From assembly GCA_035637535.1 (NCBI GenBank), contig DASPWZ010000005.1, positions 6,111 through 70,110 of the forward strand: a DNA stretch of 64,000 nt. Direction: 5' to 3'. Source of the DNA: Candidatus Dormiibacterota bacterium. Its GTDB lineage: Archaea > Thermoproteota > Bathyarchaeia > 40CM-2-53-6. The notes under the pieces are model-generated. The model was not told the origin of the DNA and made no database searches. It saw only the letters and a program-made list of their open reading frames with translations. The position numbers and the translations under genes were made by a program. Below, in pieces: positions 49,760 to 64,000 of the stretch (positions are counted from its first letter, which is position 1; the number at the start of each line of letters is the position of its first letter).

Positions 49760-50365
49760 CTAAGATTGCTCTGACGAATCTGACGCTTGCGCTCTCTGGC
49801 TTTGTACCTGGGTCGTTAAATCCAGAACGTTCTTCAGTTCCTTTTTCAAGATAAGAGGATCATGGTTGAGGTTGAAGTAGTCTGCGAAAGTTATCGTTGT
49901 CCGCAGAAGCCTTGAGCGTCCTATCTTGTCGTAACTGATTAGATCCATTTCCTTCAACTGTTTGACGTGGTGATATGCGAGTTTTCCTCTAACCCGTACT
50001 ACGTGTGACTGAGGAATCGGCTGTCTGAGAGCTATGAACGATAAGGTTCTCAATGGACCTGGGGTCAGGAGAGGTCTGTTTGAGAGCTTCCTCACGTGCT
50101 TGGCAAACTCTGGCCTGAGCTGCATCACAAACCTCCCGTCTGGTAATTCTAGGACTTGGACCGGGCTGTCTAGTTTGGCATAGCGTTCGGCTATGGCTCT
50201 TGCAATGGATCGAATCTTCTCTTCGGACCTTGCGCCGATTACTGATCCGATCGTCTTGAAGTCCAGCGGTCTTCCCGAAACGTAGAGTGCTGCCTCACAG
50301 AGCTGTTGTTGAAGCAACAAAGATGATGTCTTAGCTGCTGGTTCAGTCTGAGACTGGGTTTCCAT
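49760..50365 (-). CDS. scpB: SMC-Scp subunit ScpB
   Basis: EAALYVSGRPL, LRTLSFIALRQPI...VRG, TT..FADYF. Confidence 0.93.
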   Translation of the reverse strand: METQSQTEPAAKTSSLLLQQQLCEAALYVSGRPLDFKTIGSVIGARSEEKIRSIARAIAERYAKLDSPVQVLELPDGRFVMQLRPEFAKHVRKLSNRPLLTPGPLRTLSFIALRQPIPQSHVVRVRGKLAYHHVKQLKEMDLISYDKIGRSRLLRTTITFADYFNLNHDPLILKKELKNVLDLTTQVQSQRAQASDSSEQS

Positions 50366-51020
50366 CGTTTATCACTTCGATCCGAATATCTCCAAATTCT
50401 TCTGTCTGAACTAGACCAACCTTTCTTTCTATGGCGAGGAATAGGAGCATGATGAACATGCGGACCGCTTGCACAGTATCTCCCTTCCCCAGTAGATGCA
50501 GAAATGAGAGGCTTTCGCCTGGAACCGTCTCTTTCAAGAGTCGGCTGTAGAAAGCGTTGATCTCGTCTTCAATCTTCACGAGCCAATCGTCCGCCTGTTC
50601 AAACACGGCAGGTGTACGGGACACTAGCTGAGCAGTCTCAGACGGCAGTAGCCTCTCGGCCCTGAGAACGTCAAGTATTCCCTTGAGAACTTCGTCTAGG
50701 GAGGTTGTTGTGGACTGGAATCTGATCGGGAACGCTAGGGGGGGAGGCACATAGTCCGTGGGCTTTTCAGGTGGAGGTCGCGGTGGTTCCTCCATCTTCA
50801 GGATGAGTTCCGATTTCATCCGCAGAAGGACTGCAGAGGATAGTAGTGCTGTTCCTGAGACTGAGAAGTCTATGAATCCTCGGCCTTTCATCTCCTTCAT
50901 CAGACCCGTCAGAAGCTGGGACAGGTTCACGTCCCATGGCTTGACACGATGTAAGTGGAGCAAGTCAAAGAGTACAGTGTACGGGCTTTTGAGCCAGTAG
51001 GTATCCTGTTCCGTCGTCAA
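50343..51020 (-). CDS. scpA: SMC-Scp kleisin ScpA
   Basis: KPWDVNL, LLRMKSE, FIMLLFLA...L.Q.EEFGDI. Confidence 0.92.
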   Translation of the reverse strand: MTTEQDTYWLKSPYTVLFDLLHLHRVKPWDVNLSQLLTGLMKEMKGRGFIDFSVSGTALLSSAVLLRMKSELILKMEEPPRPPPEKPTDYVPPPLAFPIRFQSTTTSLDEVLKGILDVLRAERLLPSETAQLVSRTPAVFEQADDWLVKIEDEINAFYSRLLKETVPGESLSFLHLLGKGDTVQAVRMFIMLLFLAIERKVGLVQTEEFGDIRIEVINDGNPVSD

Positions 51021-54000
51021 TCTTTGGCTCCGCCCTTGTTCGGTAGAGAGATCACCTGGCTCTGTCCCTGGTCGATGTAGACTCCGAAGACTCTATCCGC
51101 ACGAGAGATCGTAGTGTCTTTCAGAGAGATCACGACGAACTGGGAATCCGTGCTCTTGGACTTGACTAGTGTTGCCAGTCTCTTCGCGTTCAGAACATCT
51201 AGGTGGGCGTCTATCTCGTCCATGATGTAGAATGGCATCGGATGGATTTGTTGCAGAGCAAGTAGATAGCAGACTGTCGAGACCGATTTTTCTCCGCCAC
51301 TCGCAGCGCCGATCGTGAGTTCGGTTTTCCCGGGGAACTGGAGGAACACGTCCAACCCTCCTTCGAATGGATTGTCGGGGCTATCTAGCGCCATCCTTCC
51401 ATTCCCGCCGTTCGTGATGTCAGAAAAGATTTGGTGGAAAGTATCATTCACCTTAGTGAAGGCGCCCATGAAAGTGTCGAGTTTTCTTTTCTCCAGTTCA
51501 TTCATGAAGTCTAGAATTGCCAGCTTCTCTCTTTCGAGATCCCCTATTCGAACTGAGAGGTGCTTGTATCCGTCCTTGATCTCTTCATAATGCTGGACTG
51601 CTAGCTGATTAACCAAGCCGATCTCAGCTAGCTCCTTCTCGAGACCCGCCTTGATTTTCGTAGCATCTTCGATAGCTTCTGGCGTGGTTTCTAGAGGCTT
51701 CTCAAAGCCGAGATTTCGCAACTGTGCAATCAGCATTGTCAGCTGCGTCTCTAGCTCTCTGAGGCCTGCCTTCAACTCCGAGACGTTGGAGTTGAGCGGG
51801 TCCATTCTATCGATTAGTTGCGAAAGGGACTTTTCTATCTCAGAGAATCTATCTTCGTACTTTCTCCTCTCCTGACCGACTGTTGCAAGGGCGTCTACTA
51901 GTCGAGCTTTTTCTTGGGTAAGCTTACTCATTTCTTGTCGTAGTTCTTCGGATTTCTTGTTCGCCGCCTCGACCCTTGATTCCTCTCGTCTGATTTCGGT
52001 CTCAAGGGCTCTCAGTTGAATCCGTACCTGGTCGTAGCCAGGTTTTAGAGTGTCAAGTGTGGACTGGGTAGAGGCAACCTTGCTGTCCAGCGCTAGCTTC
52101 TCGCGCAGCAGGGTCTCTGCTTCCGCGACCGCTTGATCTCGTTCGCGTTCCATCGCCATGATTGCTGTCCGTCTCTGTTCGATCTTCAGCTTGGCTAGCT
52201 CTTCCTCGCGCATCGAGAGGCGTCGTTTTATCTCGCCCTGCTTCTGGGCTATTTCCTCTAGTAGTTCCTGTTCGTGCTGCATCGAGTTCTGGAGACTGTC
52301 GATCCTCTTCTTCGTCTGTTGTAGCGACAAACGGGTCCTTTCGAGGCTCCTCTGAGCCATGTCGACATCGCGTGTGAGTGCTTCTCGTGTTTTGCTAGTG
52401 GAAACCCTGTCTTCTCTGAGTTTGACAATCTCATATTCTAACCGATCAAGTTCTGTTCGAGATCGCTGGACAATGGATTCTAGGGACTTGACCGTCCGCT
52501 CAAGACCTTCCAGTACGTTGGACCTTGGTATGAGGGTGGAGGCGTCGAACGGAGCTCGATAGTAGCCGCTTTCGAGACCTCCGCCCGGCTCGTAGAGGTC
52601 CCCGCTTGTCACGACGCATCTCAGGCCCTTCGCTGCACTCACGTAGGCTGCTCGCTGGTTCGTCGCGAGCATTGTATCGCCGAAGACGAACTCTACCGCT
52701 GATGCCAATCCTTTCTCGGACTTGATGACGCTCGAAAGTGGTCCCACTATTCCGGGAGTCTGCTCATACTCATCGTTCGCCGGGGGTACTTCTAGGTCAT
52801 CGAGTGGGATTATCTTGGCTCGGCCGAGCTTGGTCCGTTTTAGGCTCTCGACGCATTTTATCGCCACTTCAAGGTCTCTTACGACGAGAGCTCTCATCCA
52901 GCCTGCGCTGGCTGCTTCGACTGCCTTGTTGTACTCATCACCGTACTTGATCAGCTCTTGTAATCGCCCGAGGACTCCTTTGAGCGCTCCTTCTTCCGCC
53001 ATCTCCTCAAGCTTCTGGAGCGCCTTCTCTTCTGCCTGAAGAGTGTCAGCAATATTTCGCTGGGTATTGAACTCGGTGACTGTCACCCGTGCCCTCTTTG
53101 CAACATCGAGGGCTTCGTCAATCTCTTTGTGCCGCTGATCCTTGAGCTCCGTGTACTCTTTCGCCTTCTCTTCAATATCCTGAAGTCTCTTCTCTTCCTC
53201 CTTCCCGAGCTTCTCCATTTCCCGGATTCTTTGCTTCAGCTCCTCGGCGAGGTTGGAGAATTCCTGGTGGCGAGCCTCGAGCGTCTGCAAATGACTCGCA
53301 GTTAGGTCTAGTTTCGCCGAGCTGCCCTTGCTTGTTGCAATGAAGGTCGATAGTTCTTTTTCTAGTGCAGCTATTTCAGCATCGAGTGATTCGTGGATCT
53401 TTGCGTCGGCCGATAGAGATTCTCTGGTGTTTTGCAGGACAGTGTTGAGCTTCTCGGCTTTGGCGTTTGCTTCCCCAAATCTTGTCTCTAGGTTGGCTTT
53501 CTGAGCAGTTAGGTTTCTAATCGCAGTCGGGAGTTCTTTGAAGTTGGTCTGGATTTGTTCTCCCTGATTCTGTAGAGACTCGATTTGCTTAGTTCGGGTA
53601 TTCAGAATATTCTTGGCTGCTTCGGCTTCTGCCTTTGCTCTGACCACTCCATTGCTAGCCTCTGCGATCTTCCTTTCAACGTCGAAAAGTTCTTGATTGC
53701 CTTGGGTGACAGTGAGCTCTTCAAAGTGGCGTCTCTCGGCCTCCACCTTGGACCTTTGGCTGGTAAGTTCGTCCCTCTGGTCCCTTAGCGCTTCGAGGTT
53801 CTTCTGCTCGATTTCAAGCTCTAGGGCGGCACTAGTACGCTTGTTTTGGAGACCGACTATTTCTGATGAGTAGATTCGTGCTTGTTGCTTTCCGATCTCC
53901 TTCTCGATAAGTTTGGATCGCAGAAGGTCGTTTCGTTCGCGTTCAAGCCGCTCTATTCTGTTTCTTACGTCTTCGACCTTGCCTGCTGCCACCATCAGGT

Positions 54001-54556
54001 TAAGGTCGGCTTCTGAGAGCTGGACCTTTGCTTCGGTCTTCTTGGTCTCGAAGACTCCTAGTCCTATGAGGTCTTCTAGGATCCGTCTTCGTTCTTCTGT
54101 GCTAATCTCTGCGAGACGGGTGATTGAGTGTTGAGCGATGAGGTTGAAACCGGTTACTTGGATGTCGCCGGAGCTGAGAATATCCTGTACTTGTTTTCTA
54201 GAAAGGCGGCGACCGTTCATTCGATAGATACCCTCCCCGCCCTTGGAAAACTCGCGTGACACGGTGACGAGGTCTGAGTCTACAGGAATCTTTCTGTCGG
54301 AGTTGTCGAACTGGACGGCTACGTAGGCGGCTCTGGCGTCTCCTGTGCCCGACTTGTGGACTAGGTCTGAGAGGCTTCCGCCTCTAAGTTCTCGGGGGCT
54401 GAGCTCGCCTAGTGAGAATTTTAGCGCGTCGAGGATATTGGATTTTCCCGAGCCGTTGGGGCCGGTGAAGACTGTGAAGCCTCGGTCGAGGTTGACTGAG
54501 ACCTTCTTGTTGAAGGTCTTGAAGCCTCGGATGTCGATTCTTTTGATATAGACCAA
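51017..54556 (-). CDS. smc: Chromosome segregation protein SMC
   Basis: GPNGSGKSN, long coiled coils, hinge (GRAKIIPL, G..YEPGG), SGGEKS, MDEIDAHLD. Confidence 0.97.
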   Translation of the reverse strand: MVYIKRIDIRGFKTFNKKVSVNLDRGFTVFTGPNGSGKSNILDALKFSLGELSPRELRGGSLSDLVHKSGTGDARAAYVAVQFDNSDRKIPVDSDLVTVSREFSKGGEGIYRMNGRRLSRKQVQDILSSGDIQVTGFNLIAQHSITRLAEISTEERRRILEDLIGLGVFETKKTEAKVQLSEADLNLMVAAGKVEDVRNRIERLERERNDLLRSKLIEKEIGKQQARIYSSEIVGLQNKRTSAALELEIEQKNLEALRDQRDELTSQRSKVEAERRHFEELTVTQGNQELFDVERKIAEASNGVVRAKAEAEAAKNILNTRTKQIESLQNQGEQIQTNFKELPTAIRNLTAQKANLETRFGEANAKAEKLNTVLQNTRESLSADAKIHESLDAEIAALEKELSTFIATSKGSSAKLDLTASHLQTLEARHQEFSNLAEELKQRIREMEKLGKEEEKRLQDIEEKAKEYTELKDQRHKEIDEALDVAKRARVTVTEFNTQRNIADTLQAEEKALQKLEEMAEEGALKGVLGRLQELIKYGDEYNKAVEAASAGWMRALVVRDLEVAIKCVESLKRTKLGRAKIIPLDDLEVPPANDEYEQTPGIVGPLSSVIKSEKGLASAVEFVFGDTMLATNQRAAYVSAAKGLRCVVTSGDLYEPGGGLESGYYRAPFDASTLIPRSNVLEGLERTVKSLESIVQRSRTELDRLEYEIVKLREDRVSTSKTREALTRDVDMAQRSLERTRLSLQQTKKRIDSLQNSMQHEQELLEEIAQKQGEIKRRLSMREEELAKLKIEQRRTAIMAMERERDQAVAEAETLLREKLALDSKVASTQSTLDTLKPGYDQVRIQLRALETEIRREESRVEAANKKSEELRQEMSKLTQEKARLVDALATVGQERRKYEDRFSEIEKSLSQLIDRMDPLNSNVSELKAGLRELETQLTMLIAQLRNLGFEKPLETTPEAIEDATKIKAGLEKELAEIGLVNQLAVQHYEEIKDGYKHLSVRIGDLEREKLAILDFMNELEKRKLDTFMGAFTKVNDTFHQIFSDITNGGNGRMALDSPDNPFEGGLDVFLQFPGKTELTIGAASGGEKSVSTVCYLLALQQIHPMPFYIMDEIDAHLDVLNAKRLATLVKSKSTDSQFVVISLKDTTISRADRVFGVYIDQGQSQVISLPNKGGAKD

Positions 54557-55418: not shown

Positions 55419-56221
55419 TAAGCGATTTCCTGGGTTTCCTCTTTCCTCAGTTGGGCGTGTGCGAGCGCGGTCCCGCAGGGACAGTCTTTCCTAGACTCGG
55501 GTATTTTTGCTATCGCTCCAGTTAGGATCTTATTGAGCACTTGGCTGGTCTCGTGGCCCTTCTCTTCTACTTCTCTTGCTGATAACGTTCTCTGAAGCCC
55601 CGCGGCCATGTTTGATACGAAGCTTATCGAAGCATAGCACATCTCAAGTTCGCGGGCGAGAAAAGCTTCGGGGGCTCCCGTCATTCCGACTATGTCGCAT
55701 CCCATTGTCCGGAGCATCTTGATTTCAGCAGGAGTCTCGTAGCGGGGTCCCTCTGTGCAACCCATTACGACATCTTTAGGCCGGTTTCTGCCAGACGCTA
55801 GGCTTGATGTGGTCAAGATTTCTCGGACCTTGGGACAGTATGGCTGGGAGACATCGATATGTGTGACGGGAGAACTTTCGTAGAATGTTCCGATCCGGGA
55901 TTTCGTCACGTCTACTATGTCAGATGGGATGACTATTTCGCCTGGTGTGAGTTGTTGATCAATTGCGCCGACCGCATTTGTCGCAATGATGCGTTCCACT
56001 CCTAGGCTCTTCAGTCCCCAGATATTTGCTCGATAATTCACTTTGTGAGGCGGGCTAGAATGATTTTCTCCGTGCCTCGGCAGGAAGACGGCAGGTCTCG
56101 AGTCTATTTCGCCGATCGTAAGGTTAGGTGTCGGTCCGTAGGGTGTTCCGAGGATTTTCTGGCTACCTTTGACGATGGATTTTACTCCTGAGCCGCCGAT
56201 GATTGCGATAGGACGCTTCAT
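55418..56221 (-). CDS. mtnP: Methylthioadenosine/purine nucleoside phosphorylase
   Basis: IIGGSG, PRHG..H..PPH.VNYRAN, EGPRYET.AE, VGMT..PE. Confidence 0.92.
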   Translation of the reverse strand: MKRPIAIIGGSGVKSIVKGSQKILGTPYGPTPNLTIGEIDSRPAVFLPRHGENHSSPPHKVNYRANIWGLKSLGVERIIATNAVGAIDQQLTPGEIVIPSDIVDVTKSRIGTFYESSPVTHIDVSQPYCPKVREILTTSSLASGRNRPKDVVMGCTEGPRYETPAEIKMLRTMGCDIVGMTGAPEAFLARELEMCYASISFVSNMAAGLQRTLSAREVEEKGHETSQVLNKILTGAIAKIPESRKDCPCGTALAHAQLRKEETQEIA

Positions 56222-56985
56222 TCCTCTGGGCCCTCGTAGAGTGCGCTGAGTTCTTGTAGCGTTAGCTTTCCGCCTTTGCTGAGCTTCTTCTGAGCCGTGT
56301 CCTTTAGAGCTTCCTTGAGTGCCTCTCCCTTCTGACGTTGTTCTCTCCGCTCATCATCGGTCAGAGTATTTCTTAGTTGTAGGAATTTCTGATTCGTGTC
56401 TGCTGTTCTCCGTTTTAGGTCGTCGAGTGTCTTCTGCTGTTCCTCACGTCTGAGTCTAAGTGTCTGGAAGGCTTCCGACAGTTGGACGATGTCTGAGTGA
56501 TGTTTCTGGCTTTCAGCGGCCAGTTCCTGGATTCTAGCGTGCATCTGGTCAGCTTCTTCCCGTTGCTTCGTGATGTCATCTCTCAGCTTCAGGACTTTGT
56601 GGTAGCCCGTTACGCGGATCTCTAAGCTCCTAATTTTCGTCATCAAGCGTTTCTCGCCGTCCTTCTCGAGAGGTGATGTTTGGACTTGCCATTCCAATGC
56701 TGCTAGTTCCTTCTCGGCGATTGACGCGTGTGGTCGGTCACTCATTTTCTTGAGAAGTTCTCTAAGCGTTGCGAGTTTCTCGCGGGACGTGTCTCGGAGC
56801 CTGTCCCGGGTCTGCTTGAGAGCTCGGACGGTGTCGTTCAGACCATCCCGTGCCTTGCGTAGGTCTTGTAGTTCTTCCCGGACCTTCTGGAGTTTGGTCT
56901 TGGTCTCGTTGAGCTGGTCGAGGCTCTTTGACTGTTCGATTCTCAGTTGTTGTCGTTCGTCGTCGAGCTTGTCGATCTCGCTCAC
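56218..56985 (-). CDS. Archaeal coiled-coil protein (COG1340-like)
   Basis: Long heptad helix, LEWQVQT, C-terminal 'KKLSKGGKLTLQEL'; likely GTG start 56985. Confidence 0.8.
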   Translation of the reverse strand: MSEIDKLDDERQQLRIEQSKSLDQLNETKTKLQKVREELQDLRKARDGLNDTVRALKQTRDRLRDTSREKLATLRELLKKMSDRPHASIAEKELAALEWQVQTSPLEKDGEKRLMTKIRSLEIRVTGYHKVLKLRDDITKQREEADQMHARIQELAAESQKHHSDIVQLSEAFQTLRLRREEQQKTLDDLKRRTADTNQKFLQLRNTLTDDERREQRQKGEALKEALKDTAQKKLSKGGKLTLQELSALYEGPEE

Positions 56986-57102
56986 TTGTTGGGACCTCGC
57001 CGTGCCTGGATGACTGGAATGATGGAAAGGTAGATTGACCGCCTTATAGGGATTGAAGATGAGAAATCGGGGACGGTTACAGACTCGTCGGCTATTGAGA
57101 AG

Positions 57103-57774
57103 GTGGGTGATCGTCTCAGTCTGATTGGGACGATTCATGTGGACCCTAAGAGCGCCAGCTTTGTACGGGAAACGATTCTGCGATTGAGGCCGGCGGTGGT
57201 AGCGTTAGAGCTGGATGAGGGGAGGCTCATGGCACTAGAGAATCCTGGCAAATCCTCAGGCCGTGGTGGTGGCGGCTCGTTCTTGGCGATGATGTTGTTG
57301 GAGAGGTTTGCGGGGGAGATGACTGGTTCGCCTCCGGGGCAGGAGATGCTTCGGGCGGTTGAGGCTGCTAGAGTAGTAGGGGCGAGGGTGGCTTTTGTCG
57401 ATCTTCCTATTGGAATGACGGTTGGATCCCTCAGGAAGCTTCCCTTACGCGAGAAAGTAAGGCTCGGGGTTGATTCTCTGGTTAGTATTGCACTCTTGCC
57501 TTTTGGCGGGTTCAACTTGTCGAAATTGACGGAGAATTTGGATGAACAGCTTGGGCTGTTTCGGTTGCGTTATCCCGAATTGAGTAGGCTTCTTCTGGAT
57601 GTTAGGGAGGAGTTCATGGTGGCGAGGATTCGAGACATCATGTATTCCACGGTTGGACAGGTGGTTGCAGTCGTCGGCTACGGACACCTTCGCTCGCTCA
57701 GCAAGTCACTTGCCCACCTTCAGACCGCCACGGTCTATTCGACCCAAGTTACCTGGAATGTGTCTACGGGATGA
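57103..57774 (+). CDS. traB: TraB/GumN-family protein
   Basis: LIGTIHV, VALELDEGR, PGQEM, VREEFM, VVGYGH. Confidence 0.88.
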   Translation: MGDRLSLIGTIHVDPKSASFVRETILRLRPAVVALELDEGRLMALENPGKSSGRGGGGSFLAMMLLERFAGEMTGSPPGQEMLRAVEAARVVGARVAFVDLPIGMTVGSLRKLPLREKVRLGVDSLVSIALLPFGGFNLSKLTENLDEQLGLFRLRYPELSRLLLDVREEFMVARIRDIMYSTVGQVVAVVGYGHLRSLSKSLAHLQTATVYSTQVTWNVSTG

Positions 57775-57947
57775 AGAAAGCGGTCGAGTCCAGTCCATGG
57801 TTGGTGACGTGGCGCGAGTTTCTGATTTTCTAATTTTTTGGAAAAAGAATACTTGTTTTTTTTTCGCGATTTTGAAATTTTACCTACGATTTTTTGGATG
57901 GTGTCGTGGGCAAAGTAAAGAGAGCCTCCTTTTCCAGACGCTGGGGG

Positions 57948-59375
57948 TTAGGAGAAGAAGAGTCTCGTTTCACCCATTGTTCTGACGTCTAGCGCTTCGA
58001 TGTCGACCATCAGGGGTAAATCATGGACGACGCTTCCCAGAAGCAGGCATCTTCTCGCGGGGGTCCCTCTGATAAGCGAGCGTATCGTCTCACTATCTGA
58101 CTTTGCCACTTTGCCGATTGTTTCGATGTCATGTTCGTTGGTGAAGTTGAAGATGAATACGTTGTCGGCTTGCCGGTAGATCGTCTCTTGGACGGTGTCG
58201 GGTTGGTTGGTGATGAAGGTCGTGAAGAGGCCGATATGACGCATCCTCGTGATAATGTCGTCCCAGTACGTGTCTCTCAGGTAGAGGTGGGCTTCTTCGG
58301 CGAAGAGGAAGGCGGCTCGAAGCCAGTTGGACGAAAGGATCTTCGTCAATTCACCTAGGAAGATCTCGACGATTATCCGCCGGACGAGGTGGCTCTGGTT
58401 CTTCAGGTTTACAACGAGGATTCCTCCGCCGTCGATGGCGTGGAGGATCTTTTCCTCAGTCAGAGGGTTGGCCTCGTCGTAGAAGAGTCCAGATTCCAAC
58501 AGCACTTGGAGTCTAGAGACGAGCGCTTCTCTGACGCTCTCGTGGCAGCTCCATGACTGAACGGTCTGAATCAGGTTGGGTAGAGTCAGGTCGCCCTTTG
58601 ACTCTAGGTCCCGCCAGATAGTGCTGAACACCTTCGAGGAGGTTGCCGGAAGGTCCAGAGCGTTGCTTAGGACCCCTGCCATTGTTCGGAACCCGAGTTT
58701 GGCGAGGGCGAAGTTGATTCCGCTTCGAGGCGCAAGCACCGTGAGCCTCGACGTGGATAAGCGTCCATCCTTAGACTTGTGGAGGTTGACGTATTCGCCA
58801 TTTACATCTAGAACGATGCAGGGTGCTCCGAGTCCGGCCATTGATAGGAGCAGAAGTTTTGCGAGGTGGGACTTACCCGTTCCTTTGCGCCCCGTGATGA
58901 TGTTTAGGCCACCGTCAAGACCCCCAGCGTCGATTTGGACCGGATCCCCGTCGTTATGGCCGACAGTCAATGGCCTCTTTCCACCGTTCATAATCAGCCG
59001 GTTGATCGGATAGGCGCGTATACGGGATGAAGTTCGGGATGGAAGCCATGATGTGGTGGGTGAGAGGTCCTTTTCGCCCGTGATGGTTCCTCTGATCTTG
59101 CAGACTGCCAGCCGCGTATCTTTCAGCGCGTCTACTTCGCTGGAAATGTTGAGGGGATCCATATCCTCCCCGGATAGTTCGCCGTCCGTCATGACGTCTC
59201 GGAGGATGTCTTCCAGGATTCCCGGGACGTTGGCGTATTGTAGGTCGATTACTTGGACGAGTAGTCCCTTGGCCAATCCAGGATCTTCTATCAGTAAATA
59301 GTCTCCTCGCTGGACATGCTCGTCGGGAAAGGCGATCAACTGGACCTGATCGCCTTCCTTCCGGTAGATTCGCAT
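57948..59375 (-). CDS. herA: HerA-family ATPase
   Basis: HAS-barrel-like N-terminus, GRKGTGKS, LDVNGEY, FAEEAH, RMRHIG, TNQP. Confidence 0.9.
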   Translation of the reverse strand: MRIYRKEGDQVQLIAFPDEHVQRGDYLLIEDPGLAKGLLVQVIDLQYANVPGILEDILRDVMTDGELSGEDMDPLNISSEVDALKDTRLAVCKIRGTITGEKDLSPTTSWLPSRTSSRIRAYPINRLIMNGGKRPLTVGHNDGDPVQIDAGGLDGGLNIITGRKGTGKSHLAKLLLLSMAGLGAPCIVLDVNGEYVNLHKSKDGRLSTSRLTVLAPRSGINFALAKLGFRTMAGVLSNALDLPATSSKVFSTIWRDLESKGDLTLPNLIQTVQSWSCHESVREALVSRLQVLLESGLFYDEANPLTEEKILHAIDGGGILVVNLKNQSHLVRRIIVEIFLGELTKILSSNWLRAAFLFAEEAHLYLRDTYWDDIITRMRHIGLFTTFITNQPDTVQETIYRQADNVFIFNFTNEHDIETIGKVAKSDSETIRSLIRGTPARRCLLLGSVVHDLPLMVDIEALDVRTMGETRLFFS

Positions 59376-59377
59376 GG

Positions 59378-60484
59378 TTAGGCCACGTACCTGCTGGTGC
59401 CGAATGGTCCGAAGAGTGATCGTCGTAGACTGGGACGGGATTGTAGCGTGATATGATGATTTGATGCTACGAATCGTTGGACGGCGAGAATCTCGTTGGC
59501 CGTGAAGGTGCTGAAAATGTGGGCGATTCTCAGAGTCTCTGGATAACCGTGAAAGATAACATCGAGGCCAGCTAGTCGTTCGAGCGCTTGTTGCGCTTGT
59601 TCTTGGCTCGATTCTCGATCTATGTCGGTTCTGAAGAGGAATCCATCGCTGGATAGTTTTGCTACGTATACTCTGCCAAGGAATCTTAAAGGGTAAGGGG
59701 GATACTCGCTCTCAACTAGAGAGCTGATGTCGATTAGGTGGGGGCCGTCTTTCTCGTTTGTGAGTCCGAGAATGTTTCTTCCTCCGACAGTCAGCTGTGT
59801 TGCTTTGGATATGCCGATTACAACGGAGTGATTCTGACGGGCTGTGGCTAGAATCTTGTTCACTCGGGCTGCGGGGTTATCTGGAGTGCCTGCGGTTAGA
59901 GATCCGTCGATCAATAGTATTCCGCCGTGTAGCGATTCCGACAGGACTTCCTGGGTCCAGCGTTCAACATGGTTTCGGAGTCGGGTGAGGACCCGTAGGG
60001 TCTTGAGTGATAATCCGCCGAAGGCTCGCGACTCATCTTCGCGATACTGGCTTACATCTTCAGAGTTTGGAACGTGAAAAAGTAGGGGCCCCCATCGGGT
60101 ATAGAGAATCTTGCTCCTTTGTCTCCAAACACCAACTGCACGGATAGCGAAGATCATCCCGGTCTCGGTTTCGCCGATCTTGACGCTCGAGGCGTCGCAA
60201 GCAACTACGGGGACGAAATCTTTCGCGGGATTGATCGCACAGCGTTTCAGTCCTGACGAGTTTATGGAGCCTCCAATTTCGAGTCTCTCTTCAGAATCGG
60301 CGTCGTCGACCCCCATTTCCACGAGCGAGACTGGTCGCGGGTTGAATTTTGATCCTTGGAGTGATTGCATTGACCGGGTAGATAGTTCTACGAGGGATTC
60401 GGGGATGGCTGGTAGTCCGATGACCTCCGGTATGCTTTTTATTTGCTGAAGAGGCTCAGTAGTCTCTTGGGTGCGGTAGAGCAA
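59378..60484 (-). CDS. nurA: NurA-family nuclease
   Basis: ACDASS, IDGSL, GISK, GYPETLRIAH; 2 bp upstream of herA. Confidence 0.85.
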   Translation of the reverse strand: MLYRTQETTEPLQQIKSIPEVIGLPAIPESLVELSTRSMQSLQGSKFNPRPVSLVEMGVDDADSEERLEIGGSINSSGLKRCAINPAKDFVPVVACDASSVKIGETETGMIFAIRAVGVWRQRSKILYTRWGPLLFHVPNSEDVSQYREDESRAFGGLSLKTLRVLTRLRNHVERWTQEVLSESLHGGILLIDGSLTAGTPDNPAARVNKILATARQNHSVVIGISKATQLTVGGRNILGLTNEKDGPHLIDISSLVESEYPPYPLRFLGRVYVAKLSSDGFLFRTDIDRESSQEQAQQALERLAGLDVIFHGYPETLRIAHIFSTFTANEILAVQRFVASNHHITLQSRPSLRRSLFGPFGTSRYVA

Positions 60485-60551
60485 GGTTAGATTCCCCCAG
60501 TTTCAGGCGGGAAAGCCCCCTTTCCCGTCTGTCCCCGCACCAGTTTCCATA

Positions 60552-61088
60552 TCATCCTGATGCAGTCACCGTTTTCTGAGCTGGCGATGACGCAGCTCTT
60601 GCGGTGAGGCCCTTTGCAATCTCGTGGGCCTTCCGTATTCCTTGCATGCTGAGCTTGTAGGCTCCATCGCTCGTCCTGTCGATGAGTCCGGTTTTTGTCA
60701 TCATTGCCAGAGTGTTCCGGACTGTCTTCACTGCTTTTCCGATTGCTCGGCTGATGGCTTCGGGGTCCATCTGTACATTTGGACGGGTGCCTACTGCATG
60801 GGCTACCCGAGCAGCGAGGAGTACCATGGCGATGGAGTTCTCTGCTGACATTTCGGGCTTCAATAGGACGGCTTCCCCTTCTGGGGTCAGCTGGACAGCG
60901 CTCGAAAGATCGTCAACCATAGACGAATAGTCCGGCGAGAAGGTTAGTTTGGAAGCTAGTGAATAGTTTGGTAGGACCTTGGCTGCGAATTGCATGACTT
61001 CACGAACAACTGTCTCTAGGTCTCCCTCTGCGGTGTGTTTGATGTCACCCCACTCAATCTGAACCTTGATCTTGGGTTGTTCTGGCAT
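60552..61088 (-). CDS. Uncharacterised protein with C-terminal winged helix (paralog 1)
   Basis: 'KIKVQIEWGD...EGDLETVVRE', TPEG, 'KTVRNTLAMMTKTGLIDR..GAYKLSMQG'; ATG 61088. Confidence 0.8.
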   Translation of the reverse strand: MPEQPKIKVQIEWGDIKHTAEGDLETVVREVMQFAAKVLPNYSLASKLTFSPDYSSMVDDLSSAVQLTPEGEAVLLKPEMSAENSIAMVLLAARVAHAVGTRPNVQMDPEAISRAIGKAVKTVRNTLAMMTKTGLIDRTSDGAYKLSMQGIRKAHEIAKGLTARAASSPAQKTVTASG

Positions 61089-61093
61089 GTTTC

Positions 61094-61642
61094 TTACCTC
61101 TCGGGAAGCTGTGCGACTCGGGGCATCAGGTTCTTGATGATGACTCTGATGCCCATGGTTGTGAGTCGGTAGGAGCCTTTGCCGACTCGTTCGACGAGTT
61201 GTTCGTTGCAAAGTTCGCTTAGCCTGCCTGCTACGGTGCCTGTTGAGCGTCCAGTGGTCTTGGTGATCTCGTCTAGTGACAGTGTGTCGCTCTCTTTCTT
61301 GCCCATTTGATGCTGTAGACGTGACCCTGCGAGATGGATCATCATGAGTTCCTTGTCTTTCAGTTCCCTCAAGTCCTTTAGAACGACCAAGCCTTCTGGA
61401 GAAACTGCGAGCACTCCAGTGCAGCTCTGAAGGAATTCTACACTGTCAACAGAGAGCACGAGTTTGGAGACGAGATCAATGGAAGGGTAGATTTTCGAGA
61501 AGTAGATGAGGAGTTCTCGCAGAACCGTTTCTGGACTGCCGATGATTCGATTCTCTACGCCTGAATGTTTTAGGACGACTTCTATGGCTGCGGCTGTTTC
61601 CTCAGGCTTCGCCTTACGCTCCAGTACTTCTAACCCTGACAT
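61094..61642 (-). CDS. Uncharacterised protein with C-terminal winged helix (paralog 2)
   Basis: 'IEVVLKHSG...IGSPETVLRE', SPEG, 'GTVAGRLSELCNEQLVER..GSYRLTTMG'. Confidence 0.8.
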   Translation of the reverse strand: MSGLEVLERKAKPEETAAAIEVVLKHSGVENRIIGSPETVLRELLIYFSKIYPSIDLVSKLVLSVDSVEFLQSCTGVLAVSPEGLVVLKDLRELKDKELMMIHLAGSRLQHQMGKKESDTLSLDEITKTTGRSTGTVAGRLSELCNEQLVERVGKGSYRLTTMGIRVIIKNLMPRVAQLPER

Positions 61643-61708
61643 TATTCTTCTTACCCGTGCTGTTCTCAGAGTCGAGATATAACGCTTTTCGGTCCCGAAG
61701 ATCGCATG

Positions 61709-61793
61709 ACAAGGTGTTACTTTCAGAGTTGGGAATGAAAGTGAAAGTATTTCGGCTCGAGATAGAAGTCGGGCGGAACCACAAGGTGTTACT
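61709..61793. repeat. 13-bp direct repeat ACAAGGTGTTACT (two copies, 72-bp period)
   Basis: Exact copies at 61709-61721 and 61781-61793 in a divergent promoter region. Confidence 0.75.
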
Positions 61794-61884
61794 CGAAGCC
61801 GGATATCGAATCTGCTAAGATGACCAGTGATTCCGAGACCGAACCTTCTTCTATCGGCTCGAGGAGTCCTTCAACCGGTCTGCA

Positions 61885-62133
61885 TTGGACTATAATGAGC
61901 TCAAGATAAGGGTCCTGAGTCTCTTTGAACCTTCAAACGATTTGGATAGTCAGAAGATCCGTGATCTACTCTCGGGCATGAAGGTCCAGCTGTCTGACAA
62001 AGCAGTCGAGATGGCTCTCCTACGATATTCAAGACAAGGCCTACTCGCCAGGACCCGACGATCCGGGAGATTCCATTACAAGATGACTGAGAAAGGATTA
62101 GCGCGCAAAATCTGGCTGTCTAAAACTAGGTAA
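61885..62133 (+). CDS. Small winged-helix protein (PaaX-N/PadR-like)
   Basis: 'AVEMALLRYSRQGLLAR...YKMTEKG'. Confidence 0.75.
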   Translation: MDYNELKIRVLSLFEPSNDLDSQKIRDLLSGMKVQLSDKAVEMALLRYSRQGLLARTRRSGRFHYKMTEKGLARKIWLSKTR

Positions 62134-62635
62134 TCTTCTGGAGGCGGGGGAGGATGTCGTTCTGGATCCACTGGACTCCAGCTCCTGAGAGGACGTAGTT
62201 TCCTCGTTCTGTTATGACCTTGCCTTCCCGTCGCAACTCGCTGATTCGGGCCCTAACGATACTCTCACCTGTAGTCTTCCATGACGAACTCAGCAGAGAG
62301 CTGAGGTCATCGTCTCCCAACGGTTTGGGGTGCATGGAGAACATTACTAGCGATATGGCTTCCTTCGCCGAGAGTGTATCGACGGGAACCGTGAGGTGGG
62401 GTTTTCCTTCGGAAGTAAACTCGACGATGCCCGCGATACCGACTGACTGTTCCGGAGTTGGAGTTGGACTGGCGGAGAATTGTGGCGTAATGACGAAGCT
62501 ACCTGTAGGCCCGAGGGACTTTTCCAGATCCTCAAACCGCTCTCTTACGTAATCGTGATCTCCTTCAAGCTCGACTTCAAAATCCCCCTTTCGGATTCTG
62601 AACCTCAGCTTCTTCTCCGAAGACAAGACCACCAC
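62126..62635 (-). CDS. Uncharacterised protein with C-terminal winged helix (paralog 3)
   Basis: 'KLRFRIRKGDFEVELEGD..YVRE', TSEG, LSAKE, 'VRARISELRREG..GNYVLSGAG'. Confidence 0.78.
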   Translation of the reverse strand: MVVLSSEKKLRFRIRKGDFEVELEGDHDYVRERFEDLEKSLGPTGSFVITPQFSASPTPTPEQSVGIAGIVEFTSEGKPHLTVPVDTLSAKEAISLVMFSMHPKPLGDDDLSSLLSSSWKTTGESIVRARISELRREGKVITERGNYVLSGAGVQWIQNDILPRLQKIT

Positions 62636-62748
62636 GATTCCTTTTCACGGTTCTAATTAGGGTTTATCGAATCTTAGAGTAATAATGGGCAGAGGGAGTT
62701 GAAGACATTTGAATATGAGCGGCCTCAGGGCGCAGTAGTCGAGCTCTT

Positions 62749-63261
62749 TTGGTGGATAATGGACCAGTAATTTTCATTGCCGAATTAGCTACGGTTATCG
62801 CCGGGTCTTGGCTCGTTTCGGAATTACTGATCCGGCTCGTTACGAGGGGCGCCAAGAGAGCGGGTGCATCCGCGGACCTAATTAGGAATGTTCGCGAGGG
62901 GCTGAGTATTCTCTGGGTTGTCTTCGTGGCCGCGTGGCTTGTCATTGTTCTGGGATTGGGGTCAATATTTTCTTTCTTGACTCTCTCTGGAATAGTAGGA
63001 TTAGCGATCTCGCTCGCGTTACAGAATACCCTGAGCAACATAATCTCAGGAATCCTAATACTGTCAGATGGGGTCCTACGACTCCACGATTCGGTCGAGT
63101 ATAGCGGAGTGGAAGGAAGGGTCGTAAAGATAGGTTTGAGGGCGACCTGGGTCAAGACGGACAGCGGTGATATCGCGATAATAAGCAACAACTATCTCGC
63201 GAACGGTCCCTTGGTAAACTTCACTGCCAGCGAACGTCTTGAGAGGAAGTTGCGCCTATGA
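62749..63261 (+). CDS. mscS: Small-conductance mechanosensitive channel (short MscS)
   Basis: Three TMs, GLAISLALQNTLSNIISG, G.V.KIGLRAT. Confidence 0.88.
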   Translation: MVDNGPVIFIAELATVIAGSWLVSELLIRLVTRGAKRAGASADLIRNVREGLSILWVVFVAAWLVIVLGLGSIFSFLTLSGIVGLAISLALQNTLSNIISGILILSDGVLRLHDSVEYSGVEGRVVKIGLRATWVKTDSGDIAIISNNYLANGPLVNFTASERLERKLRL

Positions 63262-63419
63262 TTTTGTCAGACTACTTCCATAGTGCCTAATTCCCACGCC
63301 CATACCCATCTTTGTCTGACGCGCTCTGGTCGGACATACAAGTTGTCCGAATATCTTACACGGAGAAAAACAAGGGAAGGGACAAACGACTCACCCAAGT
63401 CGCCCGTCCCATACTTTGG

Positions 63420-64000
63420 CTATAGGTGACTTACTAGTGGGCCTGCTGTCGGTTTCGTCCGTGGGTGGCGACGGCCTGGAGTTGGATTTGGCTCTGTGAA
63501 GGGTAGCGTCTGGAGGAACTGTGGCACCTGCCTTGCGTGTGTCACTGCTTCGAAGCCAGATGCTAGCTTGATCAAAGTTGGCTCACTGAAGGCTGTGCTG
63601 AAGAAAGATATTCCGACCGGGACGCCGAAGGTCATGCCCATCGGCACATTGATGTTAGGATAACCAACGATCGCCGGCGGCGACGAACTGCCGACCACAA
63701 AGTGGTCGCCGTTGATCAAGTCCGTCGGCCACGAAGGGTTATCCGTTGGGGCCACTATCGCGTCGAGATTGAATTCCTTCAAGAGCATGTCGATGCCCTC
63801 CGTGGCGCCAAACAGTATGTCCGCTGCGATTGCCTGATTGTACGACATCCCCAAGGGTTGTGTTGCGTTAGGGTCCGAGCTGAACGTCTCCGCGAGTTCG
63901 AAGATCTCTTGTCCAAAGAAGGGCATTTCTTGAACTGCATGAGCTGTGTTGAAGGCGATCAGATTCGCTAGTGTCCCGCTGGCCGTTGGCACGCCGGTCC
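63420..64000 (-). CDS. Amidase-signature family protein, C-terminal part (5' end outside the window)
   Basis: FGQEIFE, LDAIVAP, AIVGYPNINVP, PVGISF, SEPTLIKLA..FE. Confidence 0.85.
   Translation of the reverse strand, partial: TGVPTASGTLANLIAFNTAHAVQEMPFFGQEIFELAETFSSDPNATQPLGMSYNQAIAADILFGATEGIDMLLKEFNLDAIVAPTDNPSWPTDLINGDHFVVGSSSPPAIVGYPNINVPMGMTFGVPVGISFFSTAFSEPTLIKLASGFEAVTHARQVPQFLQTLPFTEPNPTPGRRHPRTKPTAGPLVSHL

Follow-up and report, generated by a model that had tools for sequence, protein, structure and literature searches.

What does a row of winged-helix genes do in front of nurA and herA? The question is raised by a 64,000-nucleotide stretch of DNA, here called the window, from a soil member of Bathyarchaeia whose assembly is 1.72 Mb long and 76% complete. 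An initial annotation described a NurA-HerA pair headed by winged-helix paralogs (P1 and P2), with a third paralog (P3) and a minimal winged-helix protein (sW) beside them. All six open reading frames were confirmed at the coordinates named beforehand (Table 1), with gaps of 5 bp between P1 and P2, 67 bp between P2 and NurA and 2 bp between NurA and HerA. The sW and P3 genes are convergent and overlap by 8 bp.

We establish below the gene identities, folds, conservation and synteny of this locus, and the separate clade of its HerA. The P proteins are a previously unnamed two-domain winged-helix family that travels with NurA-HerA. They may take part in archaeal DNA-break repair as partners or regulators that have so far gone unrecognised.

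Table 1. Features of the NurA-HerA locus, with positions in the window
Feature	Position	Strand	Length	Description
HerA	57948..59375	-	475 aa	divergent P-associated subfamily of HerA-type hexameric ATPase/translocase
NurA	59378..60484	-	368 aa	divergent nuclease; Pfam NurA match
P2-nurA spacer	60485..60551	-	67 bp	GC-rich, conserved stem-loop
P2	60552..61088	-	178 aa	P1 paralog
P1	61094..61642	-	182 aa	heads P1-P2-nurA-herA unit
P1-sW divergent control region	61643..61884	.		two 13-nt boxes, TATA-like block, inverted repeat
sW	61885..62133	+	82 aa	small basic winged-helix protein; weak PaaX/HTH_12 matches
P3	62126..62635	-	169 aa	third, more distant paralog; separate transcription unit

NurA and HerA

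NurA matches Pfam PF09376 with 28.9 bits (cut-off 21). Its gene has a TTG start codon and lies directly upstream of the herA start. A profile search by sequence retrieved no solved NurA; Foldseek with the AF2 model (pLDDT 73) returned Sulfolobus solfataricus NurA as top match (2ygk, E 6.4e-10). Five residues are invariant within the window-type NurA family (D97, E174, D193, K227 and Y314). They keep the order of the D58/E116/D133/K202/Y298 set given for S. solfataricus NurA in the accessible text of PMC3326311.

HerA matches Pfam DUF87 (49.7 bits, cut-off 23.2), and its closest solved structure is S. solfataricus HerA (4d2i, E 6e-10). Walker A (GRKGTGKS) and Walker B (FLFAEEAH) fall in invariant columns of the HerA family alignment. 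In line with the separate module that the initial annotation had proposed, this HerA is outside the canonical repair HerA clade. Canonical HerA equivalog models give it 12–16 bits, against 232 bits for a canonical bathyarchaeal HerA. In the HerA tree, which follows taxonomy, the 21 window-type rows form a clade of their own (support 100/100), whose stem is 2.95 changes per column long and inside which Bathyarchaeia are nested (98/95). Nor is the window HerA the sole HerA of its genome.

We searched the Bathyarchaeia sample for canonical HerA with NF040819 at E<=1e-30. It was found in 1/1 genomes of family f7, 1/1 of f2, 1/16 of f12 and 1/2 of f14 and nowhere else, with 0/23 in families f8, f11, f13, f15, f16, f17 and f18. 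Most complete bathyarchaeal genomes sampled have the window-type HerA, and canonical HerA was not found in them.

The P family

P1 and P2 are paralogous over their full length (BLASTP 4e-22, 28% identity). P3, claimed as the third paralog, is indeed related but more distant: it matches the C-terminal part of P1 at 2e-5 and the N-terminal part of P2 at 2e-4, and a full-length alignment was obtained with orthologs added. The motifs that had been read from the three window proteins recur in the P-family alignments, namely a TPEG-type motif with a nearly invariant G84 and the C-terminal G.Y.L...G (G156, Y158, L160, G164).

Both P1 and P2 combine an N-terminal beta-hairpin/helix domain with a C-terminal winged helix. 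P proteins have an acidic N-terminal half and, over their last 90 aa, a basic C-terminal part (pI about 9.5). In the AF2 model of P1 (pLDDT 84.2), residues 88–182 match MarR/ArsR-type winged-helix structures (Z 9–10.9, rmsd 1.9–3.4 A). The P1 winged helix also matches the plasmid centromere-binding protein AspA (Foldseek E 1.2e-2, TM 0.73 on target; VIA-align Z 8.9), a resemblance that is generic to winged helices. P proteins are like MarR/ArsR/PadR-type factors in their basic C-terminal domain, of which 90–95 residues superpose in P1. Unlike those factors, they add the N-terminal domain and the TPEG hairpin before the winged helix, occur as 2–4 tandem paralogs tied to NurA-HerA and reach no Pfam cut-off. 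The best Pfam match of P1 is PF25213 at 22.9 bits, under the cut-off of 35, and P2 has no Pfam family at or above cut-off. The family is small, is unnamed in Pfam and carries "hypothetical protein" as its sole annotation.

A few P proteins are fused to other domains. In rare cases a full-length P carries an added N-terminal domain that motif reading suggests is a PD-(D/E)xK nuclease, one fusion joins a putative protein-kinase-like N-terminus to two P-type winged-helix modules, and rare P3-like fusions carry a putative TIR-like domain.

Gene order and distribution

The P1-P2-NurA-HerA order is present in 18/20 order-level loci, and contig ends cut the remaining two. Among the genomes of 41 relatives, P1/P2 is found in 37, NurA in 38 and HerA in 38, with the NurA-HerA pair in a fixed position. 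Together with the HerA tree, these counts mark the NurA-HerA of the window as a housekeeping pair of vertical descent. Orthologs of P3 (48–95% identity) occur in 11/20 order-level loci; at three loci (L047, L049, L052) P3 is co-directional, as P3-P0-P1-P2-nurA-herA.

The linkage extends further. Of 80 bathyarchaeal loci, 44 have P genes immediately before NurA and another 10 have them upstream but not adjacent; 12 loci whose upstream DNA extends for at least 1.2 kb lack an upstream P gene. We also sampled 20 P-cluster loci from other families and classes. In 14 of them a same-strand P lies within 3.1 kb upstream of NurA-HerA, in three more the P cluster is head-to-head with a different NurA-HerA subtype, and in the last three there is no NurA-HerA within the locus. 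Each locus has 2–4 P paralogs. Every tallied family with window-type HerA also has P, and window-type HerA was not found in tallied families without P. In one genome (G119), which has P genes, no window-type HerA was found at E<=1e-20. Because the arrangement recurs across an order and beyond, it is far beyond chance.

Relation to Mre11-Rad50

The initial annotation had described the pair as standing without Mre11/Rad50. This is true of the window region, where neither was found, but not of the type in general: of 120 loci scanned, 10 have mre11 after window-type herA, with rad50 next in eight of these. For 85 of the 120 loci, the sequence extended at least 2.5 kb on the downstream side of herA or contained a Mre11/Rad50-profile match. 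The ten loci belong to bathyarchaeal relatives with the same HerA type. The genome G042 reads P-P-P-NurA-HerA-Mre11-Rad50, all on one strand. An adjacent Mre11-Rad50 pair is present in 5/5 complete bathyarchaeal genomes. The window's genus keeps the pair at another locus; the window's own assembly contains part of rad50, namely its 3' half, at the edge of a contig. In another genome (G038), a full canonical nurA-herA-mre11-rad50 operon accompanies the P-linked pair. Given this operon and the minority linkage to Mre11-Rad50, the P-linked pair could serve another task.

The canonical herA-mre11-rad50-nurA operon for double-strand break repair (Sulfolobus, Pyrococcus, Thermococcus) encodes the identical two enzyme families. 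It shares with the window the NurA fold, the HerA Walker motifs and the translational coupling of nurA and herA, and with some window-type relatives mre11-rad50 directly downstream. It differs in its HerA clade, in the adjacency of mre11-rad50, which the window lacks, and in that the window-type pair is preceded by 2–4 winged-helix paralogs. Our literature search found no such paralogs described for the canonical operon. Nitrososphaera, of the same phylum, is reported to have a NurA-HerA-Mre11 cluster with Rad50 not detected nearby (PMC13707971, accessible text). As there, the window lineage has nurA before herA and, in some of its members, mre11 downstream. The accessible text of PMC13707971 makes no mention of winged-helix genes beside the cluster.

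Control region and spacer

Two exact 13-nt boxes, ACAAGGTGTTACT, lie between P1 and sW at 61709–61721 and 61781–61793, spaced by 72 nt, together with an inverted repeat and, near P1, a TATA-like block. With up to one mismatch allowed, the box occurs nowhere else in the 1.72-Mb assembly. A 10-nt core repeats with identical 72-nt spacing in 5/6 same-genus loci searched; in the sixth (L054), footprint alignment places both boxes, with one G-to-A change. The sW protein (pI 10.4) is transcribed divergently from P1 and is found at the same position in 11/20 order-level and 22/80 bathyarchaeal loci. It is a likelier candidate than the P proteins for the transcription regulator of the locus.

The consensus fold of the P2-nurA spacer, from an alignment of seven same-genus loci, is a hairpin with compensatory changes in 2/7 pairs. 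No AT-rich promoter-like element was seen in it by eye. Across 64 loci the P-nurA spacer is typically about 90 bp and is at most 10 bp in just six, whereas P-to-P and NurA-to-HerA gaps are each at most 10 bp in 50.

Proposed role and alternatives

We prefer, tentatively, to see the locus as the Bathyarchaeia/Thermoproteota form of the HerA-NurA end-resection machine, with the P proteins as winged-helix accessory subunits. The P role, and every protein-protein and protein-DNA contact, we infer. From family knowledge, Mre11-Rad50, encoded elsewhere in the genus, would perform the first end processing. The HerA ring ATPase would push duplex DNA into the NurA nuclease, which would degrade strands and leave 3' tails for RadA. 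In P1, P2 and probably P3, the acidic N-terminal domain may make protein contacts and the basic winged helix may bind DNA. The P proteins could thus form a DNA-binding hetero-oligomer that recruits, loads or gates NurA-HerA; if so, they would be accessory subunits and not plain repressors. A subunit role is favoured by the number of paralogs, the tight P-P gaps and the acidic and basic halves, by the separate sW already in the divergent position typical of regulators, and by the rare fusions to a putative PD-(D/E)xK domain. A tie to double-strand break repair is supported by the loci in which mre11 and rad50 come after window-type herA, by the Mre11-Rad50 pairs of complete bathyarchaeal genomes and by the sparse finds of canonical HerA in the Bathyarchaeia sample. 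Joint action in resection is harder to reconcile with the NurA-HerA loci in which P is lacking or not adjacent, the P clusters lacking NurA-HerA, the G119 genome, the canonical operon of G038 and the minority of loci in which Mre11-Rad50 follows this HerA.

A somewhat less likely alternative is that the P proteins are winged-helix transcription factors, perhaps damage-responsive, that as homo- or heterodimers repress or activate nurA-herA and perhaps themselves; the enzyme would then be an ordinary two-component HerA-NurA. The modelled P winged helix is closest to MarR/ArsR/PadR-type regulators. P genes come first in the unit, and this and the conserved spacer with its stem-loop would fit autoregulation equally well. 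The conserved P1-sW repeats absent elsewhere in the assembly, the putative kinase-like fusion, of a build typical of signalling, and the P clusters without adjacent NurA-HerA also point this way. However, one small operon retains two to four closely coupled paralogs across classes, and sW holds the classical regulator position. Moreover, P linkage persists with a second NurA-HerA subtype in the other orientation, and no Pfam regulator family is reached at cut-off.

An independent DNA-binding system (for example in chromatin, in segregation or linked to SMC), with NurA-HerA adjacency reflecting shared regulation or history, seems unlikely. P clusters do occur apart from NurA-HerA in some genomes, AspA is among the fold matches, and SMC (51017–54556), ScpA and ScpB lie 3.4 kb downstream of NurA-HerA on the same strand, which the initial annotation took as a hint of chromosome maintenance. 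That hint did not hold, since SMC-ScpAB is within reach in only 1/20 order-level loci, that of the closest relative. P clusters repeatedly adjoin NurA-HerA, in two orientations and for two enzyme subtypes, and among the families tallied window-type HerA was found only in those with P.

Least probable is anti-virus or anti-plasmid defence of the HerA-plus-nuclease type (SIR2-HerA, DUF4297-HerA, TdpAB), with winged-helix sensors: the top matches of HerA are defence models, weakly (NCBIfam 38.8 bits, PADLOC at most 44 bits), NurA resembles TdpB of TdpAB (Foldseek E 9.8e-10) and P3-like proteins have the putative TIR-like fusions, but the partner is NurA with no SIR2 or DUF4297 effector, no PADLOC match of note came up for NurA, P2 or P3, and the pair is vertical, near-universal and fixed in position in its lineage, has no canonical HerA found beside it in most complete bathyarchaeal genomes sampled, and is joined into one operon with mre11-rad50 in some relatives.

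Contigs from two soil RNA libraries, of relatives 90–99% alike, map to herA, nurA, P2, P1 and P3. With DNA carry-over possible, they are a weak hint that the locus is expressed; one contig spans the P2-nurA spacer and one the P1-P2 junction.

The locus and its enzymes

The locus encodes a HerA-NurA resection module in the form shared by Bathyarchaeia and Nitrososphaeria, both of them very abundant lineages in the environment. HerA-NurA corresponds, in archaea, to the long-range end-resection machines. To our knowledge, work on it has been confined almost entirely to hyperthermophiles, in which the canonical form is a two-protein complex beside Mre11-Rad50. Here, in contrast, we find a distinct clade of this known machine, consistently accompanied and headed by a new conserved family of winged-helix paralogs (P1, P2 and P3, with a fourth family, P0, in other lineages). 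The initial annotation placed all six open reading frames correctly, including the gaps of 5, 67 and 2 bp along P1-P2-NurA-HerA. The common features that it ascribed to the three paralogs (an N-terminal hairpin, a TPEG turn and a G.Y.L...G wing) are visible in a 49-sequence ortholog alignment.

Coordinates of the NurA-HerA locus in the window and of the Mre11-Rad50 locus in two genus relatives
Feature	Coordinates	Strand	Description
HerA	57948-59375	-	475 aa; Pfam DUF87
NurA	59378-60484	-	368 aa; Pfam PF09376
P2	60552-61088	-	178 aa; paralog of P1
P1	61094-61642	-	182 aa; winged helix in AF2 model
sW	61885-62133	+	82 aa; small winged-helix gene
P3	62126-62635	-	169 aa; distant paralog
Mre11-Rad50, locus L169	7217-10734		genus relative
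Mre11-Rad50, locus L170	6381-9892		genus relative

HerA and NurA are real but divergent. The central domain of HerA matches DUF87 at 49.7 bits (Pfam gathering cut-off 23.2), and its closest sequence relative among solved structures is S. solfataricus HerA (E 6e-10). Across 13 orthologs, the Walker A residues G162, K164, G165, G167, K168 and S169 and the Walker B residues F358, A359, E360, E361, A362 and H363 are invariant. The canonical equivalog models NF040819 and NF040937 give only 12.3 and 15.6 bits (cut-offs 970 and 800), whereas one canonical bathyarchaeal HerA reaches 231.7 bits on such models.

NurA matches PF09376 at 28.9 bits (Pfam cut-off 21). A conserved N-terminal helix spans residues 29-40. 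No solved NurA was retrieved by sequence with the NurA profile. The AF2 model (pLDDT 73, pTM 0.75) has S. solfataricus NurA (2ygk) as its top Foldseek match (E 6.4e-10, TM 0.47/0.53); TdpB and NurA from T. kodakarensis, P. furiosus and D. radiodurans are among its further matches. The window protein is thus predicted to have the RNase H-like NurA fold. The catalytic Asp/Glu/Asp of S. solfataricus NurA and its conserved Lys and Tyr are D58, E116, D133, K202 and Y298 (PMC3326311). D97, E174, D193, K227 and Y314, invariant in 16 orthologs of the window NurA, run in the same order; their putative equivalence is by order and secondary structure rather than residue-level superposition.

For the HerA phylogeny, we picked 32 rows by hand: 21 of the P-linked window type, one P-adjacent divergent type, nine canonical or canonical-like, and a 627-aa HerA encoded elsewhere in the same assembly. 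The tree has a midpoint root only, and it excludes one intein-bearing protein (locus L150) and most of the 80 bathyarchaeal loci described below. Window-type HerA forms a clade with 100/100 support on a long stem (2.95 changes per column). Bathyarchaeia are nested inside it (support 98/95), with L158, a locus linked to Mre11-Rad50, at the base of the bathyarchaeal group. L174, L144 and the 627-aa HerA each sit on a long branch that is unreliable. The expectation that this HerA lies outside the canonical repair clade is borne out by the tree and by the equivalog scores.

Conservation of the P genes with NurA-HerA

The linkage of winged-helix paralogs to NurA-HerA noticed in the initial annotation is conserved within the order and reaches other classes. 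Our order-level sample comprised 41 genomes: the assembly carrying the window and 40 relatives from 10 families. P1/P2 occur in 37 of these, NurA in 38 and HerA in 38. P1-P2-NurA-HerA lie in order on one strand in 18 of 20 fetched loci; contig ends truncate the remaining two, whose surviving parts are consistent with it. P0 precedes P1 in 8 of the 20 loci, P3 and sW are each found in 11, and three loci carry the full series P3-P0-P1-P2-NurA-HerA on one strand.

A wider set of 80 bathyarchaeal loci was collected through HerA. P genes stand directly upstream of NurA, in one to four copies, in 44 of them, and upstream in a non-adjacent position in 10. Twelve have no P gene despite at least 1.2 kb of upstream DNA; 11 were short of upstream DNA and three were without NurA.

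Across the phylum, a P-family profile found matches in 159 of 301 sampled genomes, and the carriers named by a protein atlas are Bathyarchaeota and Nitrososphaerota. Window-type HerA (E<=1e-40) occurs in 100 of the 301 genomes and, by family, only where P occurs; for example, the counts for the two are 15/17 and 15/17 genomes in family f23, 11/11 and 11/11 in f27, and 18/18 and 17/18 in f32. Families f19, f28 and f34 have window-type HerA in 0/43, 0/20 and 0/10 genomes and carry canonical HerA instead. By hand comparison, ~94 of the 100 genomes with window-type HerA have a P match, a figure that is a description rather than a test because relatives are not independent.

We also retrieved 20 P-gene neighbourhoods, of which 15 belong to other classes and 5 to other families within Bathyarchaeia. 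Window-type NurA-HerA lies on the same strand within 3.1 kb in 14 of them, and within ~500 bp in 11 of these 14 (stop-to-stop frame coordinates). In three further loci (L144, L150 and L154), the P cluster stands head-to-head with a different NurA (Pfam 50-82 bits), and an adjacent HerA was confirmed in L144 and L150 (DUF87 47.8 and 40.6 bits); these divergent genes were missed by the bathyarchaeal HMMs and detected by Pfam. NurA-HerA was absent from within the last three loci. That the P cluster is an independent DNA-binding system, which the last three loci would suit and the other 17 would not, we consider improbable.

Several of these loci have features of their own. The HerA at L150:4845-7352 (genome G057) is interrupted by an intein (Intein_splicing 72 bits) ahead of the segment matching DUF87 34-219. 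Two extra small genes recur, in other lineages, between the P cluster and the divergent NurA-HerA (L144:11531-11971, L150:8524-8967/8996-9676, L154:8273-8680/8894-9604, L157:11646-12377). One encodes ~140-150 aa, and its start is similar to the N-terminal hairpin of P; the product of the other has 227-244 aa and opens with '..LPRRLSF.K.C..LVAYLNAG'. Pfam scans of two of these proteins gave no family. A bathyarchaeal P1-P2-NurA-HerA, with a HerA 50% identical to that of the window, also lies on a contig (L140, DATKOK010000013.1) that is filed under Candidatus Methylomirabilota bacterium, probably because the public record was binned wrongly. Two modules look damaged or mis-assembled: NurA is in two frames at L047 7598-8723 (G025), and at L050 8088-9528 (G036) HerA is split into two pieces that overlap, as is P1.

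Relation to Mre11-Rad50 and SMC

In the window, mre11 and rad50 are not adjacent to herA and nurA, as the initial annotation described. Its further step, to a module independent of Mre11-Rad50, is not supported by related loci. We scanned the neighbours of 120 loci with purpose-built profiles and found window-type herA followed by mre11 in 10 (L096, L107, L111, L113, L115, L123, L135, L139, L158, L161), with rad50 next in 8 of these. Neither gene was found in 72 loci with at least 2.5 kb of downstream DNA; 28 loci were short of such DNA and 7 lacked window-type HerA. Rad50-profile matches in L061, L063 and L095 are attributed to SMC, as was shown for L061 and inferred for L063 and L095. The arrangement without Mre11/Rad50 is a local rearrangement.

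The missing pair was traced to a separate locus in genus relatives, where Mre11 (383-384 aa) is followed directly by Rad50 (~800 aa) with no herA or nurA there (Table). The window's own assembly (1.72 Mb in 54 contigs, 76% complete; the window is on contig C5) holds the 412-aa C-terminal half of a Rad50-like ATPase running off the start of contig C9 (G000:C9:1-1239, L020), and no Mre11 was identified in it. Over its first 40 residues this fragment looks hydrophobic, a feature unexpected in a Rad50 coiled coil. Mre11 and Rad50 are adjacent in 5/5 complete bathyarchaeal genomes; Mre11_Sulfo scores 105-112 bits in four and only 46 bits in the fifth (G039). Genome G042 has P-P-P-NurA-HerA-Mre11(411)-Rad50(704) on one strand, and G038 has the P-linked pair plus a full canonical nurA(455)-herA(541)-mre11-rad50 operon. 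Few bathyarchaeal families yielded canonical HerA, which makes the P-linked pair the principal HerA-NurA of Bathyarchaeia and, in many cases, the only one found.

The nearby smc-scpAB genes had been taken as a hint of chromosome maintenance. SMC (1179 aa), ScpA (225 aa) and ScpB (201 aa) are co-directional at 49760-54556 of the window, with frames overlapping at both junctions. This neighbourhood is shared with the closest relative (L061) only, and we rejected a link to the module because SMC is seen in only 1 of 20 loci.

The P proteins and their possible roles

P1 and P2 are full-length paralogs (4e-22). P3 is distant from both (2e-5 and 2e-4) and aligns over its full length in the ortholog alignment. 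The family is small: of 1.84 billion representative proteins, 820 match at E<=1e-3, and 232 clusters remain at E<=1e-10. Its members are annotated 'hypothetical protein' in every source that names one. We found no description of it in the accessible part of the literature on HerA-NurA of Thaumarchaeota/Bathyarchaeota or with winged-helix paralogs.

The AF2 model of P1 (pLDDT 84.2) consists of a beta-hairpin (residues 20-35), three helices (37-74, with lower confidence at ~51-70), a second hairpin with the TPEG turn (78-87), a winged helix (96-160) and a C-terminal helix. Residues 88-182 of this model match winged-helix structures with Z up to 10.9. It is for the winged helix alone that relatives were found, namely those of MarR/ArsR/PadR type together with AspA. 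Foldseek with the whole model returned nothing at E<=1e-3, a wide VIA search with P1 was filled by matches to the wHTH part only, and residues 17-92 had no usable match in the protein atlas. The N-terminal halves of the P proteins are acidic and the C-terminal 90 residues basic (median pI 9.4-9.6 for P0-P2 and 8.4 for P3); sW has a pI of ~10.5.

We tentatively read the P proteins as accessory DNA-binding subunits, which we hold to be nearly an even call. A more specific form of this reading seems to us rather unlikely as it stands: that P1, P2 and P3 (with P0 elsewhere) serve as stoichiometric subunits in a larger HerA-NurA holo-enzyme, one that would be typical of mesophilic Thermoproteota (Bathyarchaeia, Nitrososphaeria), and form an end-recognising loading platform. 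DNA ends or damaged structures would then be recognised by a hetero-oligomeric winged-helix platform, which would also load the HerA ring and the NurA clamp and take over part of the recruiting role of Mre11-Rad50 in hyperthermophiles. Complex prediction with P1 (alignment A6, 42 rows) and P2 (A7, 42 rows), run without controls, gave 0.05 and 0.04 against a mark of 0.32, values that speak neither for nor against an association.

That the P proteins are instead regulators is possible, at well below even probability. The MarR/ArsR-type matches of the P1 winged-helix model speak for this, but none of P1-P3 belongs to a curated MarR/ArsR-type family above cut-off. Indeed, none reaches the cut-off of any Pfam family: the best match is PF25213 for P1 (22.9 bits, cut-off 35) and PF25212 for P2 (18.3 bits, cut-off 27.6), and P3 has none. 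A role in defence, as known for other HerA-nuclease pairs, is highly improbable and was rejected because the distribution is vertical and near-universal (38/41 relatives, not patchy or island-like; HerA tree); the partner is a NurA, and PADLOC matches are at most 44 bits for HerA and absent for NurA and P3.

If the P proteins are partners of the enzyme, they would add a missing layer of recruitment or control to archaeal recombination repair, and a biochemical handle in lineages without genetics. If they are regulators, the repair operon would have a dedicated and unusually elaborate control circuit.

P modules are rarely fused to other domains (proteins P0002, P0069, P0100, P0148, P0150 and P0123). 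From their sequences, we read the partners as a kinase-like N-terminus, a PD-(D/E)xK-like N-terminus, a DUF488-like C-terminus, a TIR-like N-terminus and a transmembrane N-terminus. These fusions may hint at the role of the P module.

Spacing, control region and expression

Gaps of at most 10 bp separate P from P in 50 of 64 loci and NurA from HerA in 50 of 64. The gap from P to NurA has a median of 90 bp and is this short in only 6 of the 64. In the genus of the window, the P2-nurA spacer is GC-rich with a predicted hairpin, for which compensatory changes were seen at 2 of 7 pairs (seven sequences, a small sample of close relatives). The 242-bp control region between P1 and sW contains two exact copies of a 13-nt box, ACAAGGTGTTACT, 72 nt apart, with no further such site in the assembly. 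In same-genus loci these boxes are kept, as are an inverted repeat, which is invariant, and a TATA-like block ~35 nt away from the start of P1. An Rfam scan of 57000-63500 gave only a sub-threshold snoRNA match (23.6 bits against 47).

Two soil metatranscriptome libraries contain contigs on herA, nurA, P2, P1 and P3. They are 90-99% alike to the locus and therefore come from relatives. One contig (60347-60830) crosses the P2-nurA spacer and another (60867-61618) the P1-P2 junction. Coverage leaves out sW, the control region and the flanks, gaps that are uninformative. We take these contigs as a hint of expression; they fall short of proving that there is a single transcript, and they may reflect DNA carry-over.

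Other HerA and SMC-like genes

The assembly has one Pfam NurA. A second herA, looked for following the initial annotation, is present. Beyond the window HerA there are three DUF87 matches, the third below cut-off; the other two are near-identical copies of a 627-aa HerA (DUF87 65.5 bits) at the end of contig C3 (G000:C3:115175-118319, L018) and the start of C17 (G000:C17:1-2725, L017). Since the copies are near-identical and sited at contig ends, they probably reflect strain variation or a break in the assembly. Upstream of each is a 639-aa protein that belongs to no family in Pfam, NCBIfam or PADLOC. The 627-aa HerA scores 134.8 bits on the PADLOC model 'HerA, Type III coevolved'; on this basis, it and the 639-aa protein may form a HerA pair associated with CRISPR.

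At G000:C14:46921-50302 (L021), the gene for a short SMC-like ATPase (636 aa, SMC_N 126 bits) is followed on the same strand by genes for 265-aa and 172-aa proteins, neither with a Pfam family. Together they may form a small SMC-like complex distinct from the SMC-ScpAB of the window.

Directly downstream of herA, in the window (56218-57774) and in same-genus loci L057 and L061, lie divergent genes with overlapping starts for a 306-aa coiled-coil protein and a TraB-family protein (TIGR00261 76.9 bits, below cut-off). The former matches DUF7121 at 27.9 bits, just below the cut-off of 29, and has weak SMC/Rad50 coiled-coil matches.
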